Assembly: GCA_964481125.1 (NCBI GenBank)
Contig: CAYZSL010000001.1
Span: 34,468-98,467 of the forward strand
Origin: an uncultured Candidatus Saccharibacteria bacterium
GTDB taxonomy: Bacteria > Patescibacteriota > Minisyncoccia > Minisyncoccales > RBG-13-42-11
DNA length: 64,000 bases
Reading direction: 5' to 3'
Program-made: the position numbers and the translations under genes
The notes under the pieces: model-generated
Told to the model about the DNA's origin: nothing
Database searches by the model: none
The model's input: the letters and a program-made list of their open reading frames with translations, nothing else
Shown here: one piece after another, positions 54,792 through 59,131 of the stretch
Numbering within the stretch: position 1 is the first letter of the stretch
Layout of the letters: each line of letters begins with the position of its first letter

Positions 54792-54862
54792 CGGGGTGTA
54801 GTATAACGGCAGTATTTGCCCTTGGGGTGGGTAAGACCCGGGTTCAATTCCCGGCACCCCGA
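54792..54862 (+). tRNA. tRNA-Pro (anticodon GGG)
   Basis: Acceptor CGGGGTG/CACCCCG + A73, anticodon stem TGCCC/GGGTA with loop TTGGGGT, T arm CCGGG-TTCAATT-CCCGG; no CCA. Confidence 0.85.
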
Positions 54863-55707: not shown

Positions 55708-55735
55708 ATTATACTCTTGTTGATAATTTTGTCAA
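55708..55735 (-). promoter_or_regulatory. consensus promoter placed for a leaderless trmB-like transcript
   Basis: Minus strand TTGACA (55735-55730) - 16 nt - TATAAT (55713-55708) - AGAGGT - ATG (55701). Confidence 0.6.
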
Positions 55736-55814: not shown

Positions 55815-55843
55815 TTGACAAAGAATACATCTTATTTTATAAT
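55815..55843 (+). promoter_or_regulatory. perfect consensus sigma-70 promoter for the orphan two-gene cassette
   Basis: TTGACA (55815-55820) - 17 nt - TATAAT (55838-55843). Confidence 0.65.
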
Positions 55844-55902
55844 AAAAGAAGCAAATTGGTCGGTTAAGTTCTTTGGCAAATGAAAATAAAAAGGAAGGTA
55901 AA

Positions 55903-56220
55903 GTGATTACTATATCAGGAAACACAGTCAAGATTTTTTTCGTAGAAAAAGAAATAAGGCCAGAGGAAACTATGTGTATTGAGATGAGTATCCCTGAAAA
56001 AATAGATGGGGAAACAGGTGAGGTAAAAAAATGGAAAACGCTAGATGCGTCAGATGGTGTGTATGCTTCCCGTGTAACGATATTTCCCCATCACTACGAA
56101 GGAGCATTTGGCGCTTCTCTCTTTACCAAGTTTGGAATATTTTTGAATGCAGAAGCGGCAAGAAAAATGAGCAAGGCCCTTTTACTGTTGGCGAAGCATC
56201 AAGAGAAAGAAAAGAAATAA
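55903..56220 (+). CDS. orphan hypothetical protein A (~105 aa)
   Basis: GTG 55903 preceded by AAGGAAGG (55891-98); track ORF starts at TTG 55873 without an SD; no family recognised. Confidence 0.55.
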   Translation: MITISGNTVKIFFVEKEIRPEETMCIEMSIPEKIDGETGEVKKWKTLDASDGVYASRVTIFPHHYEGAFGASLFTKFGIFLNAEAARKMSKALLLLAKHQEKEKK

Positions 56221-56234
56221 AAAGGAGGACAAAA

Positions 56235-56882
56235 ATGTTTGAAGTAGAAGATAAAGTAATATACCGAGAAAGTGAAAAAATAGGAACAGTGGTGGGGTTT
56301 TCTGAAACTTACCAGAGTCGCAGTTGTAATTTTGGTCGTAGACCTGGGATCTATAAGAATAGATGTTGGGTATGGGTAAGGTTTGGAAATAGATCAAGCA
56401 ACAAACCAGAACTAATTTCTAGTACATTGTTAGACCCGGTAAATAAACGGGAGTATAACCAGCGTTTTAAAAAACCCAAACTCCCTAGTTGGAAAGAATG
56501 GGAAGAAAAAGAGAACTTCATTTGTGACCCTCCAGACACAAAATTCTGGGAGGGCGATATAGTACGACTGGCCAAAGGTGAAGATAAGAATAAAGTATTA
56601 ACAGTCTTAACAATCAAAAATATCACATCCGAAGATAAAGGAAATGATGAGCCATTAACTTATGTACTTGATAAGGTTTTTAAAGCCAACGTTGGTCACG
56701 GCTCATATGAAAGATTAGAAGACAAAATGGTTCTTGTTGAAAGGGGGAATATATGGAAATATTACCATTATAGACCTCTACGGTTTGTAGATTCTAAAGA
56801 AGCAGCAGAATTCTTTGAAATGACAAATCTTACAGGTAACAATAAGTCTATCATGATAATTCCAATAATCCCAATTGCCTAG
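56235..56882 (+). CDS. orphan hypothetical protein B (215 aa)
   Basis: ATG 56235 with AAGGAGG 6 nt upstream; two short beta-like modules (EVEDKVIYRESEKIGTVVGF, FWEGDIVRLAKGEDKNKVLTVLTI); hydrophobic tail IMIIPIIPIA; no family recognised. Confidence 0.65.
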   Translation: MFEVEDKVIYRESEKIGTVVGFSETYQSRSCNFGRRPGIYKNRCWVWVRFGNRSSNKPELISSTLLDPVNKREYNQRFKKPKLPSWKEWEEKENFICDPPDTKFWEGDIVRLAKGEDKNKVLTVLTIKNITSEDKGNDEPLTYVLDKVFKANVGHGSYERLEDKMVLVERGNIWKYYHYRPLRFVDSKEAAEFFEMTNLTGNNKSIMIIPIIPIA

Positions 56883-56950: not shown

Positions 56951-57014
56951 TCTCAAAGAACTTGTTTTTGGCTCGGAGCTTTGTAACCTGTTGAAGTTTT
57001 GTCTCAACAGAACT

Positions 57015-57041
57015 AAAAAACCGCTGAAATGGCGGTTTTTT
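57015..57041. terminator. bidirectional intrinsic terminator (ends the candidate RNA on the minus strand)
   Basis: aaaaaaccgc-tgaaatg-gcggtttttt: A6, GC stem, T6. Confidence 0.75.
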
Positions 57042-57173
57042 AGTGGCTCTGTTTTCTAGGAAGTTTTCTCGGAAAAAGTTACAAGTGGGAATCCTAGTCT
57101 TGGCCCAAGGGCCAAGAATCATTTCAGACTCCCTTAAAAAACTTTTGTACCAGAACTAACTAGATTCAGAGCC
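57015..57173 (-). ncRNA. candidate ~159-nt rod-shaped structured RNA, family unknown (6S-like layout)
   Basis: Own promoter and terminator; 5' GGCUCUG (57173-67) pairs with CAGAGCC (57051-45); nested helices and the terminal palindrome UCUUGGCCC-UU-GGGCCAAGA (57117-57098) drawn by eye. Confidence 0.5.
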
Positions 57174-57179
57174 AATTTA

Positions 57180-57209
57180 ATTATACCTTTTTGCAAAAAA
57201 CATTGTCAA
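57180..57209 (-). promoter_or_regulatory. consensus-hexamer promoter of the candidate RNA
   Basis: Minus strand TTGACA (57209-57204) - 18 nt - TATAAT (57185-57180), starting 2 nt after the kinase-like gene stop. Confidence 0.6.
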
Positions 57210-57210
57210 A

Positions 57211-58314
57211 TTAAAGACCCAAAACATCGCTGATTTGCTTTATTAAAGAAACGACAACCGGCGGAGGAAGCAAGCTGTAAGAGGGTTCTTTGTTATCGTC
57301 TGGAACAAGCCAGGGCCTTTCTTTAACGATTGCTTTATCCCCTTTCCATTCGTAATAATATTCCGGGGTAATCTCGTAATCGTCAACAGAGCTTTCAGCG
57401 GATTTCTTAGGGACAGAATTCCTCAAAAGAATCTTGGGAATACCATAAAGAGAAAAAGCTTGGTTAATCAGTTCCCCGTCTCTTTTTAATCTGTCTTTGA
57501 TCGGCTTTATGCCGAAATCATCACCTTCTTTGCGAACCATTCTCGTTCCACTGCACTTTGGGTTATCGCAAAGCAGATAGAATTCTTTTTTCTTTGCCTC
57601 ATAGCCTATCTTGGAAGTGGGCAATAATTTAAAATTTCTTGAGGTCTGGCAATGAGGACAAACCATCCTGTATTTTATCCTTTCGTCAATCACCTTTTCC
57701 GGTACATCAAGCAAGACAAAAAAGTCGGGGTCCTCACGATAGCCGATCAAATCCCTAAAAAATAAAGCAAAGTTTATCTGATCTAAATCCCTGGGAAAGC
57801 CGTCAAGAAAAATAGTTTTTCTCTGTCTTTTTCCGATTTCTCTTTTTACCAAAGCTAATATCAATTCTGTCGGCAAAAGGGTTTTTGTACTTCTTTTTTC
57901 CAAAAAAGACATCAAATCTTTAGCTGACTGCCAGCCGCGGTAATTCTTTTCCAAAAAAGAAAAAAGCTCCTTTTTCTTTTTCGGGTCTTTCAGTTCGTTG
58001 TCGACTCCCCGGATCATATCACCTATTGAAAAATGCTCGATTCTTTCCGGATCAACAATCTCAGCGAACATTTTGGAATATGTTCCTTTGCCTGAATTTT
58101 TTTTGCCGACAAGATAAGCGACGAAAGTATTCCCCTTTCTAAAATATTCCCTTAATTTTTTTATCTCTTTTCCCGCTTTCGATTGGAAATACTTTTCTCT
58201 TTCTTTCGGATTATTCAAATCAAAAGTTGCTTTTACTTTCGGATTTTTAGTTTTAAAAATTGGAAACTGCATAATTTTTGCTGTTGGAAATAATTTTGAT
58301 ATCGCCTTGCTCAT
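57211..58314 (-). CDS. adenylate-kinase-family NMP kinase paralog with N- and C-terminal extensions
   Basis: P-loop LVGKKNSGKGTYSK, LDGFPRDLDQ, zinc-lid-like CPHC...CDNPKC; ~150 extra residues; alternative start ATG 58272. Confidence 0.7.
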   Translation of the reverse strand: MSKAISKLFPTAKIMQFPIFKTKNPKVKATFDLNNPKEREKYFQSKAGKEIKKLREYFRKGNTFVAYLVGKKNSGKGTYSKMFAEIVDPERIEHFSIGDMIRGVDNELKDPKKKKELFSFLEKNYRGWQSAKDLMSFLEKRSTKTLLPTELILALVKREIGKRQRKTIFLDGFPRDLDQINFALFFRDLIGYREDPDFFVLLDVPEKVIDERIKYRMVCPHCQTSRNFKLLPTSKIGYEAKKKEFYLLCDNPKCSGTRMVRKEGDDFGIKPIKDRLKRDGELINQAFSLYGIPKILLRNSVPKKSAESSVDDYEITPEYYYEWKGDKAIVKERPWLVPDDNKEPSYSLLPPPVVVSLIKQISDVLGL

Positions 58315-59131
58315 CCGTCCTGAATATTCTTATACCATATTTTGCCAAAGTATCCAAAGTTTCTTGATTGGGATGGCCGTATTTATTATCCTTACCAACG
58401 GAAATTACGGCAACCTCCGGAGAAACTTCTTCAACGAATTCCCGGCTGCTTGATGTTTTGCTGCCGTGATGCCCGACTTTCAAAATGTCGGATTCAATAA
58501 AAATACCTTTTTCAACCAGCTGCTTTTCAACCGATTGGAAGGCGTCGCCAGTAAACAAAAAAGAGTCATTGCCGAAAATCAATCTGGCGACAATCGAAGT
58601 GTCGTCAACTTCTTTGATTTTTTGGTCTTCCAGATTTTCAAAAGGATAAAGAATTTCTAAAACCGCTTTGCCAGCAATTACCTTTTGCCCAGACTGTGCA
58701 GTATATACTTTAGCTTCCTTAATCGCTTCCTGCCATTTTTCAAAAATAGATGTTTCCATTAAAACACCTGTCCATAAAACATTTTCCACTTCATAATTCT
58801 CCAAAACCTTAATAAGGCCAGACAAGTGGTCCTCGTGCGGATGAGTTAAGATAAGCAGATCAATCGTTCTATCCCAGAAAGGCATCTCTTCTCCCAGTTT
58901 TTCCAAAACAGCTGAGCCCGGCCCTCCGTCAATCAGAATCTGCTGATTGCCTGGCATTTCAATGAATATGGCATCTCCCTGGCCAACATCAAAGAAATTC
59001 ACTTCCAAAGAACCTTGTCTATTCAAATCAAAAACAGTCAGCCAAGCCAAAATATTAAAACAAAATAAAACCATTAGAACCACCAATATTCTGTTTTCTT
59101 TGTTCTCGCGCATTTTTCTATAGTATCTCAA
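58253..59131 (-). CDS. ComEC/Rec2-type metallo-beta-lactamase domain protein with N-terminal membrane anchor
   Basis: FFDVGQGDAIFIE, ILTHPHEDHLSG, LKVGHHGSKTSS; only the MBL module, no competence channel domain. Confidence 0.75.
   Translation of the reverse strand: MRYYRKMRENKENRILVVLMVLFCFNILAWLTVFDLNRQGSLEVNFFDVGQGDAIFIEMPGNQQILIDGGPGSAVLEKLGEEMPFWDRTIDLLILTHPHEDHLSGLIKVLENYEVENVLWTGVLMETSIFEKWQEAIKEAKVYTAQSGQKVIAGKAVLEILYPFENLEDQKIKEVDDTSIVARLIFGNDSFLFTGDAFQSVEKQLVEKGIFIESDILKVGHHGSKTSSSREFVEEVSPEVAVISVGKDNKYGHPNQETLDTLAKYGIRIFRTDEQGDIKIISNSKNYAVSNF

Follow-up and report, generated by a model that had tools for sequence, protein, structure and literature searches.

What kind of gene occupies positions 57,015 to 57,209 on the minus strand of a 64,000-nucleotide (nt) stretch of contig CAYZSL010000001.1, which is chromosomal DNA of Patescibacteria (the Candidate Phyla Radiation, CPR)? 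The stretch as a whole is called the window here, and all coordinates are counted from its first letter. Directly downstream of a gene for an adenylate-kinase-like protein, the locus carries a consensus promoter, a sequence that folds into a long irregular rod and a predicted intrinsic terminator. A first-pass annotation, made from the letters of the window, called this arrangement 6S-like in layout and named no family. The comparative analysis described below points to a miniaturised and divergent 6S/SsrS RNA of Patescibacteria, a reading to which a probability of about 0.7 is assigned.

RNA gene and homologues

Judged by its sequence signals, the locus is an RNA gene that stands alone, with a sigma-70 promoter of consensus sequence and its own intrinsic terminator. 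The features named in the first-pass annotation are all present at the coordinates given there. The promoter, TTGACA-18-TATAAT, is found by the promoter scan exactly where the first-pass annotation had placed it and matches the consensus at 12 of 12 positions, with a single nucleotide (57210), and not two as previously counted, between the kinase stop codon and the -35 hexamer. Spacing places the predicted transcription start at G57173, the 7th nt past the -10 hexamer. The RNA then consists of a rod of 129 nt, or about 159 nt when the terminator hairpin is counted. The GC hairpin and U6 run that had been proposed as terminator are recovered by both the minimum free energy (MFE) fold and the terminator scan, and the element is also detected on the plus strand (A-tract plus T-tract), which makes it bidirectional.

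Homologues were collected by anchoring on the kinase gene, which provided 12 genome loci and 80 metagenome loci. Covariance model R1 was built from the window copy and its two closest relatives, and model R2 was rebuilt from 61 matches; the E-values of both models are rough. The RNA is present just downstream of the kinase in 71 of these 92 loci, beginning at a median of 58 nt past the kinase, and 7 of the 21 loci without it end less than 200 nt from the kinase. Every locus with the RNA has one copy, in all cases on the kinase strand, and no further copy of the element was found in the 64-kb window. Family members measure 129-143 nt (median 135). The window copy scores 160 and 139 bits with R1 and R2 on the RNA strand, as against 39 and 35 bits on the complement. 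A promoter matching at least 10 of 12 consensus positions is kept in 47 of the 61 distinct homologues, most of them with an 18-nt spacer and a -10 hexamer that ends 6 nt ahead of the rod. A hairpin followed by a T-run lies close downstream of the RNA in 43 of the 61, as counted by a crude scan that overlooked the window's own terminator. When viral contigs were scanned with a family-specific DNA pattern, four chance matches were returned and none was confirmed by the model.

The gene downstream of the RNA varies, being an opposite-strand transfer RNA (tRNA) in many loci and unrelated genes elsewhere, so the convergent 'orphan cassette' that the first-pass annotation had proposed as part of the same module is not part of the unit; only the upstream kinase is conserved. 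Copy number and orientation also decide against an imperfect palindrome acting at the DNA level, either a repeat resembling miniature inverted-repeat transposable elements (MITE) or repetitive extragenic palindromes (REP), or a recombination site, with no RNA product. The long imperfect inverted repeat could be read in this way, and a dispersed palindromic repeat does occur in related genomes. The element, however, is single-copy in the window and in each locus, is fixed in syntenic position and orientation, and is accompanied by a conserved promoter and terminator. Its model score is strand-asymmetric, and read on the opposite strand its G-U pairs would become A-C mismatches. The DNA-repeat reading is thereby refuted and is given practically no weight.

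Secondary structure and covariation

The sequence from 57173 to 57015 folds with an MFE of -62.3 kcal/mol, compared with -35.2 +/- 4.1 kcal/mol for 200 dinucleotide shuffles (z = -6.58), and none of the 200 shuffles is as stable. The MFE fold of the window copy consists of the nested helices drawn in the first-pass annotation together with the terminator hairpin. Conservation of this fold was evaluated in a model-guided alignment (A8) of 59 distinct sequences which, having been fitted to the model, favours the structure. Standard pairs occupy 93.7% of the cells in A8 versus 75.5% after shuffling, and compensatory changes on both sides are seen at 31 of the 36 base pairs. Covariation scores 0.573 in A8; shuffles reach 0.21, and controls with the pairing partners slid by 1-3 columns reach 0.05-0.13. 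A second alignment (A7) gives the same picture, and the frequent G-U pairs mark the RNA strand. Given the effect size and the slid controls, the structure is hardly in doubt despite the model-fitted alignment.

The helices other than the central one (P1-P6, Table 1) are kept by compensatory substitutions, and the irregular nested rod proposed for the window copy thus proves to be a feature of 71 related loci. The terminal 9-bp palindrome with a 2-nt loop holds as a hairpin and is revised in size, to 8 base pairs (bp) closed by a CUUG tetraloop. In P5, the three GGG/CCC positions are GC pairs in 58-59 of the 59 sequences, and the CCCAC formed by the 3' strand of this helix plus A57086-C57085 is near-invariant (57 of 59). 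An all-against-all scan of alignment columns for covariation revealed no extra helices or pseudoknots above background. MAFFT and RNAalifold, applied to seven sequences, recovered P1 and P5 only, from a poor alignment, and the covariance-model-guided alignments were used instead.

The same homologues bear on a small protein gene, which the first-pass annotation had offered as its alternative: AAGGGAG, a Shine-Dalgarno-like sequence 6 nt ahead of an ATG, would be the ribosome-binding site of an open reading frame (ORF) running from 57122 to 56946. This frame does exist and stays open for 58 codons. Among 61 distinct homologues, however, the ATG is absent in 14, the length of the ORF ranges from 1 to 67 codons, and, counted from the ATG, the invariant CCCAC is in frame 0 in 19 cases, in frame 1 in 4 and in frame 2 in 24. 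The region from the ATG to CCCAC evolves through paired compensatory changes, and translation would need to read through the terminator. With start codon, length and frame all unconserved, the small-protein reading is refuted, and the chance assigned to it is very slight.

A different result is obtained for the central region. The AAAAGUU/AACUUUU helix of the first-pass annotation can be drawn in the window copy, but it is paired in 79% of cells versus 75% in shuffles (59-66% in slid controls) and shows no excess covariation. No more than three invariant A-U pairs are formable there, and the candidate was rejected as a conserved helix. What is conserved in the central region is the sequence of an internal loop of about 16 x 14 nt, whose apical edge is formed by the invariant GGG/CCC pairs. 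The loop consensus is N-ACAAA-(A/C)-N-UU-N-UUU-NN on the 5' strand and AC-(U/C)-U-GGA-AUUUUUU-like on the 3' strand; ACAAA (57148-57144) is near-invariant (56 of 59 homologues), and the longer motif CCCAC(C/U)UGGA is found in 25 of 59. Such conservation of sequence without covariation is as expected for the bubble of a 6S RNA. When the internal loops were inspected by eye for a K-turn, a loop E or a domain IV of signal recognition particle (SRP) RNA, these candidates were dropped, because the G-A pairs or the GNRA loop that they need are missing.

Conserved loops without covariation, together with a dedicated promoter and terminator, would also suit a trans-acting small RNA (sRNA) that uses ACAAA..UUCUUU and ACUUGGAAUUUUUU as seeds against messenger RNAs. 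This is considered quite improbable. A covarying closing stem ties up both ends of the molecule, which forms a closed rod over its whole length, a shape typical of protein-bound housekeeping RNAs and unlike that of seed-pairing sRNAs. The two conserved loop strands, moreover, are opposing sides of a single internal loop, and the resemblance to 6S RNA described next also speaks against this reading.

Similarity to 6S RNA

The similarity to the 6S family (RF00013) comes from three homologues, L077, L059 and L007, which score 110, 68 and 25.5 bits with R2, where the window copy scores 139. L077 and L007, both more G+C-rich and each scanned alone, match RF00013 as the top family at 29.2 bits (E 1.2e-4) and 27.1 bits (E 3.6e-4). 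Both matches span the model in full length (positions 1-187) and lie on the correct strand. L059 matches at 29.3 bits with an E-value of 0.046, obtained in a 64-kb multi-locus search, again full-length and on the same strand. Permissive Rfam scans covered the window copy and two homologues, and the L059 match was taken from the multi-locus scan. Since R2 connects these three homologues, which resemble 6S RNA, with the window copy, the whole family is read as a divergent 6S RNA. The 6S-like layout noted at first pass has thus gained a basis in sub-threshold, full-length matches of three homologues, with RF00013 as top family in two short-segment scans. A confident Rfam match, which by the first-pass annotation would place the RNA in a known family, is thus obtained by half, the matches being significant but short of the curated score.

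The matched positions are those conserved in both families. In the L077 and L007 alignments, the invariant GGGAG falls at RF00013 positions ~58-63 and CACCCAC at ~127-133. A-GGGAG of this family corresponds to 'auaGGGag' of the RF00013 consensus, CACCCAC(U/C)U-GGA to 'gcaCCCACCUggaA', and the 16-nt A/U-rich 5' strand of the loop to the 16-nt 'gAaaauuuuuauaaua'. A sequence-only hidden Markov model (HMM) of the family, aligned with the RF00013 consensus string, falls into the same register with a weak score of 4.8 bits, and in that alignment the canonical apical arm is ~30 nt longer. Genomic position agrees as well: a 6S gene typically stays beside one gene within a lineage without being functionally linked to it (PMC8414754), and the family-wide position of this RNA beside a single gene is therefore typical of 6S.

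Proposed mechanism

As a 6S-like RNA, the molecule would occupy the DNA channel of a sigma-70-type holoenzyme as an open-promoter mimic and so sequester the polymerase. In this mimicry, downstream DNA would be represented by the closing arm, the transcription bubble by the central loop and upstream DNA by the apical arm. Upon a rise in nucleoside triphosphates, the polymerase would copy the 5' bubble strand and the closing arm into a short product RNA (pRNA). By alignment to U44, the pRNA start position of E. coli 6S RNA, synthesis would begin opposite C57147 and give 5'-GUACCAGAAC...; the pRNA would accordingly open with 5'-GUACCAGAA, antisense to 57147-57139. In known pRNAs, a conserved adenine adjoins the start and GG occupies positions 4/5 or 5/6 (PMC8414754). 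A57146, on the 3' side of C57147, fits this adenine for a start that is placed by alignment.

Synthesis of the pRNA would unzip P4/P3 and, in the window copy, free the 3' strand at 57070-57061. The freed strand could then pair with the distal 5' bubble strand at 57144-57136 over 9 bp, leading to release of the polymerase. This predicted alternative helix is similar to the one that collapses the bubble and drives release in B. subtilis 6S-1 RNA; its computed stability in the window copy is -6.5 kcal/mol (z = -4.1). The scheme is modelled on the 6S biology of E. coli and B. subtilis (PMC8876501, PMC9670815, PMC8414754). The B. subtilis 6S-1 RNA, when cut to 78 nt, binds polymerase, templates pRNA and is released, with ~10-fold lower affinity (PMC8876501), which makes a natural 130-nt version mechanistically plausible.

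Weighing the assignment

Several observations weigh against a 6S identity. At the Rfam gathering score the whole window yields four tRNAs only, and with the cut-off relaxed to E <= 10, neither the window locus nor the rod alone matches a 6S model (AgrB, RNAI and SNORA2 matches in these scans were rejected as terminator-driven or noise). The 6S matches that are significant thus come from the homologues; at 27.1-29.3 bits they lie under the gathering score of 46.4 bits, and in the multi-locus scan, which covered 18 loci, one locus only gave a 6S match. A rod-shaped RNA can, furthermore, gain some score against any rod-shaped model. With 129 nt for the rod and 129-143 nt for the family, the RNA is shorter than the ~180-200 nt of 6S RNAs and, to our knowledge, about one-third shorter than any 6S RNA on record. 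A length of ~200 nt is reported for 6S RNAs (PMC8876501). The length of the apical arm may not suffice for contact with sigma region 4. Positions 4/5 of the predicted pRNA read CC in place of the conserved GG, because the G and C strands of the bubble-proximal helix are swapped. Finally, the bubble-collapse-type helix is strong in the window's clade and reaches z < -1.5 in just 13 of the 59 sequences.

These points would suit a lineage-specific structured RNA whose function is unrelated to 6S, an explanation regarded as unlikely. Such an RNA could be a subunit or sponge of some other protein, possibly the adjacent kinase, and its invariant GGG/CCC-AC core and ACAAA loop would then be the binding site of that partner, again an unlikely arrangement. 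Its linkage to the kinase, the sole conserved neighbour (71 of 92 loci, with the median gap given above), is striking, the 6S similarity is sub-threshold and missing for the window copy, the length is far below that of known 6S RNAs, and the predicted pRNA has no conserved GG (PMC8414754). Against this stand the full-length, same-strand 6S matches of three independent homologues and the coincidence of the invariant motifs with conserved 6S positions in the L077 and L007 alignments. In addition, 6S genes normally keep their synteny without being functionally linked to the neighbour (PMC8414754), the RNA has its own promoter, and the kinase has an ordinary nucleoside monophosphate (NMP) kinase fold with a zinc LID, in which no RNA-binding domain is recognisable.

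Two related readings are likewise considered unlikely. In one, the family would be a new CPR-specific ribonucleoprotein RNA, descended from or converged on the 6S core, that works with some partner such as the extended kinase and not with the sigma-70 holoenzyme. In the milder version, it would be the smallest natural 6S RNA, functioning without an arm that mimics the -35 region. The preferred reading remains that of a miniaturised, divergent 6S RNA.

Variation at homologous loci

About ten homologous loci have the promoter followed by a copy of the first 7 nt of the RNA (e.g. GGCTCGG), an insert of 75-85 nt and then the RNA. The insert is bounded by inverted repeats CCCCGTTAGAAAT ... ATTTCTAACGGGG and folds as a long hairpin in which the first bases of the RNA belong to the 3' arm. 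Its coordinates are L054:4123-4205, L076:1070-1152, L031:1376-1458, L067:1259-1343, L091:2064-2147 and L084:3820-3913, and it is also present in L030, L033, L055, L085 and L087. The arrangement suggests that an element inserted exactly at the 5' end of the 6S-like gene and duplicated a 7-nt target. Rfam scans of this insert in the homologues matched no family. The CCCCGTTAGAAAT / ATTTCTAACGGGG repeat ends also occur at intergenic sites away from the RNA gene (L078:147-205, L088:5545-5573 and L068:2095-2107), the L088 site being a minimal 29-nt palindrome with these ends. Such a distribution suggests that these Patescibacteria carry a dispersed palindromic element of a REP/MITE-like kind.

Two other differences concern the flanks of the RNA gene. 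In L083:1584-1640, L084:4051-4110 and L085:3529-3590, a shared sequence TTCAACCCCGCCCTCTAAGCTCKTGAATTAAGGTT... follows the RNA in place of the terminator. In L084, L085 and L087, the kinase and the RNA are separated by ~1.1 kb that contains promoter-like sites of its own and the apparent start of a small ORF.

Genomic neighbourhood

The features of the RNA and the annotated genes around it are listed in Table 1.

Table 1. Coordinates of the RNA locus, its structural elements and neighbouring genes in the window
Feature	Coordinates	Strand	Evidence or remark
-35 hexamer TTGACA	57204..57209	-	Promoter scan; own promoter of the RNA
-10 hexamer TATAAT	57180..57185	-	Promoter scan; 18-nt spacer to -35
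Rod-shaped RNA, 129 nt, probably miniaturised 6S/SsrS-like	57045..57173	-	MFE, covariance models, covariation, Rfam matches of homologues
Closing (downstream-duplex-like) arm, 5' strand	57150..57173	-	P1-P4 covariation
Closing arm, 3' strand	57045..57072	-	MFE fold and covariation
P1	57173-57167 (GGCUCUG) / 57051-57045 (CAGAGCC)	-	Exact complement; both-side changes at all pairs
P2	57164-57160 / 57059-57055	-	Both-side changes at all pairs
P3/P4	57157-57150 / 57072-57062	-	P3, both-side changes at all pairs; P4, 84% paired
Bubble 5' strand UACAAAAGUUUUUUAA	57134..57149	-	Aligns to RF00013 bubble strand 'gAaaauuuuuauaaua'
P5 5' strand GGGAGUCU	57126..57133	-	GGG invariant; aligns to RF00013 'GGGag'
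Apical part: asymmetric internal loop and P6 hairpin	57095..57125	-	Covariation
Asymmetric internal loop	5' GAAAUGAU 57125-57118; 3' CUA 57097-57095	-	GA-N-AU motif conserved
P6 hairpin, 8 bp and CUUG loop	57117-57098	-	All 8 pairs with compensatory changes; 98% of cells paired
P5 3' strand GGAUUCCC	57087..57094	-	Aligns to RF00013 'caCCCAC'
Bubble 3' strand ACUUGUAACUUUUU	57073..57086	-	Aligns to 'ACCUggaAcagCa' of RF00013
Intrinsic terminator: 10-bp stem (A6CCGC / GCGGU6), 7-nt loop, U6	57015..57041	-	MFE fold, terminator scan
Adenylate-kinase-like protein, 367 amino acids	57211-58314	-	
ComEC-type protein of the metallo-beta-lactamase (MBL) fold	58253-59131		
nrdD, nrdG	59.5-62.3 kb		
tRNA-Pro	54792-54862		
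rpsL, rpsG, fusA	50.8-53.9 kb		

The kinase-like protein has extra N- and C-terminal segments around the NMP-kinase fold. At 367 amino acids versus ~215 for a canonical adenylate kinase (Adk), these amount to ~65 residues at the N-terminus and ~110 at the C-terminus. It scores far under the NCBIfam adenylate-kinase cut-offs (64 bits vs 168) and is highly conserved among the CPR loci, with 50-87% identity. Its relatives in reference genomes belong to Patescibacteria/CPR metagenome-assembled genomes labelled Paceibacterota, Staskawiczbacteria and similar.

On the other side of the RNA, the 'orphan cassette' (55815-56882, plus strand), which has a perfect 12/12 promoter at 55815-55843, is better read as a two-gene operon. 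Its first gene is a small ORF that starts with GTG at 55903, preceded by AAGGAAGG, and ends at 56220. The second starts with ATG at 56236, preceded by AAAGGAGGA, and ends at 56882; the ORF of 283 amino acids listed from 56031 over-extends this second gene upstream. For neither cassette product was a Pfam or NCBIfam match found with the part tested.

A second hairpin, CUGUUGA-N8-UCAACAG (57009-56987), follows the terminator on the minus strand. On the plus strand, the pair of hairpin and terminator (56968-57044) gives a sub-threshold Rfam match to AgrB (31.9 bits, E 0.0014), which we take as generic terminator architecture. Three perfect 12/12 sigma-70 promoters lie within 1.5 kb, at 55708-55735 (minus strand), 55815-55843 (plus strand) and 57180-57209 (minus strand); in this genome, promoters of strict consensus seem to be common.

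Significance

6S RNA has been described as present in nearly all bacteria (PMC8414754). Full-text literature searches returned no paper linking 6S RNA with Patescibacteria or the Candidate Phyla Radiation, and searches on structured RNAs in CPR returned nothing relevant. The 6S family itself is well known; what would be new here is a variant from CPR that is about one-third shorter and falls below the curated threshold. If the assignment is right, even these episymbionts with genomes of ~1 Mb still regulate their RNA polymerase globally by means of an RNA. A natural 6S RNA about one-third shorter than the textbook form would also complement the truncations made in vitro and provide a compact model for structural study. 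Should it prove to be the smallest natural 6S RNA and to lack a -35-mimicking arm, it would define the minimal natural needs for polymerase capture in reduced genomes. Whether pRNAs need the conserved GG is likewise a question for which the family is a natural test case. The 59-sequence alignment and the covariance model can be used to annotate the gene across CPR genomes.

Comparison with known systems

Among rod-shaped bacterial RNAs, SRP (4.5S) RNA resembles this family in being a hairpin-like rod with paired ends and, at ~110 nt, a housekeeping RNA. Its hallmarks are a GNRA tetraloop and the conserved symmetric and asymmetric loops of domain IV. In the present family, unlike SRP RNA, the apical loop is YUUG, CGUG or UGAG and highly variable, and the stem varies freely. 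The SRP models (RF00169 and RF01854) give no match at E <= 10 for the window copy and two homologues. Ms1 RNA is ~300 nt long, is known only from Actinobacteria and binds the core form of the polymerase, not the holoenzyme. It is a 6S-like rod that binds RNA polymerase (PMC9130861); rod shape and 6S-like layout are shared with the present family, polymerase binding being the feature known from Ms1. No Rfam match to Ms1 was seen in the scans made.

A closer precedent in kind is 6S-Flavo (RF01685; Weinberg et al. 2010), a divergent 6S RNA that standard homology searches had missed (PMC2864571). Like the present family on the 6S reading, it is a lineage-specific 6S-type RNA that escapes standard 6S searches; it differs in being restricted to Bacteroidetes. 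The 6S-Flavo model gives no match at E <= 10 for the window copy and two homologues.

With canonical 6S/SsrS RNA (RF00013), the family shares the rod architecture, here with six covarying helices: a closing arm and an apical arm, and between them a large bubble conserved in sequence. G-C pairs stand at the bubble edges, the 5' bubble strand is A/U-rich, and the core A-GGGAG ... CACCCAC(C/U)UGGA aligns to the 6S consensus. The gene is single-copy (per locus), has a strong housekeeping promoter and shows synteny at the level of the lineage. It differs in that both arms are short in the Rfam alignments, with ~25-30 nt fewer in the apical arm and 15-20 nt fewer in the closing arm, and in its scores, which are 27-29 bits where a match is detected at all, the gathering score being 46.4. 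Next to the bubble, the closing helix is UCUGG/CCAGA in this family versus CuGAgCC/GGuUCa in 6S RNA, so that the G and C strands are swapped. The engineered minimal forms of B. subtilis 6S-1 RNA, 6S78 and 6S82cp, bind the sigma-A holoenzyme, template pRNA and are released (PMC8876501), and they too have a central bubble between short helical arms. Those molecules are artificial truncations of 78-82 nt, whereas the present family is natural and conserved, measures ~130 nt and has a two-helix apical arm.

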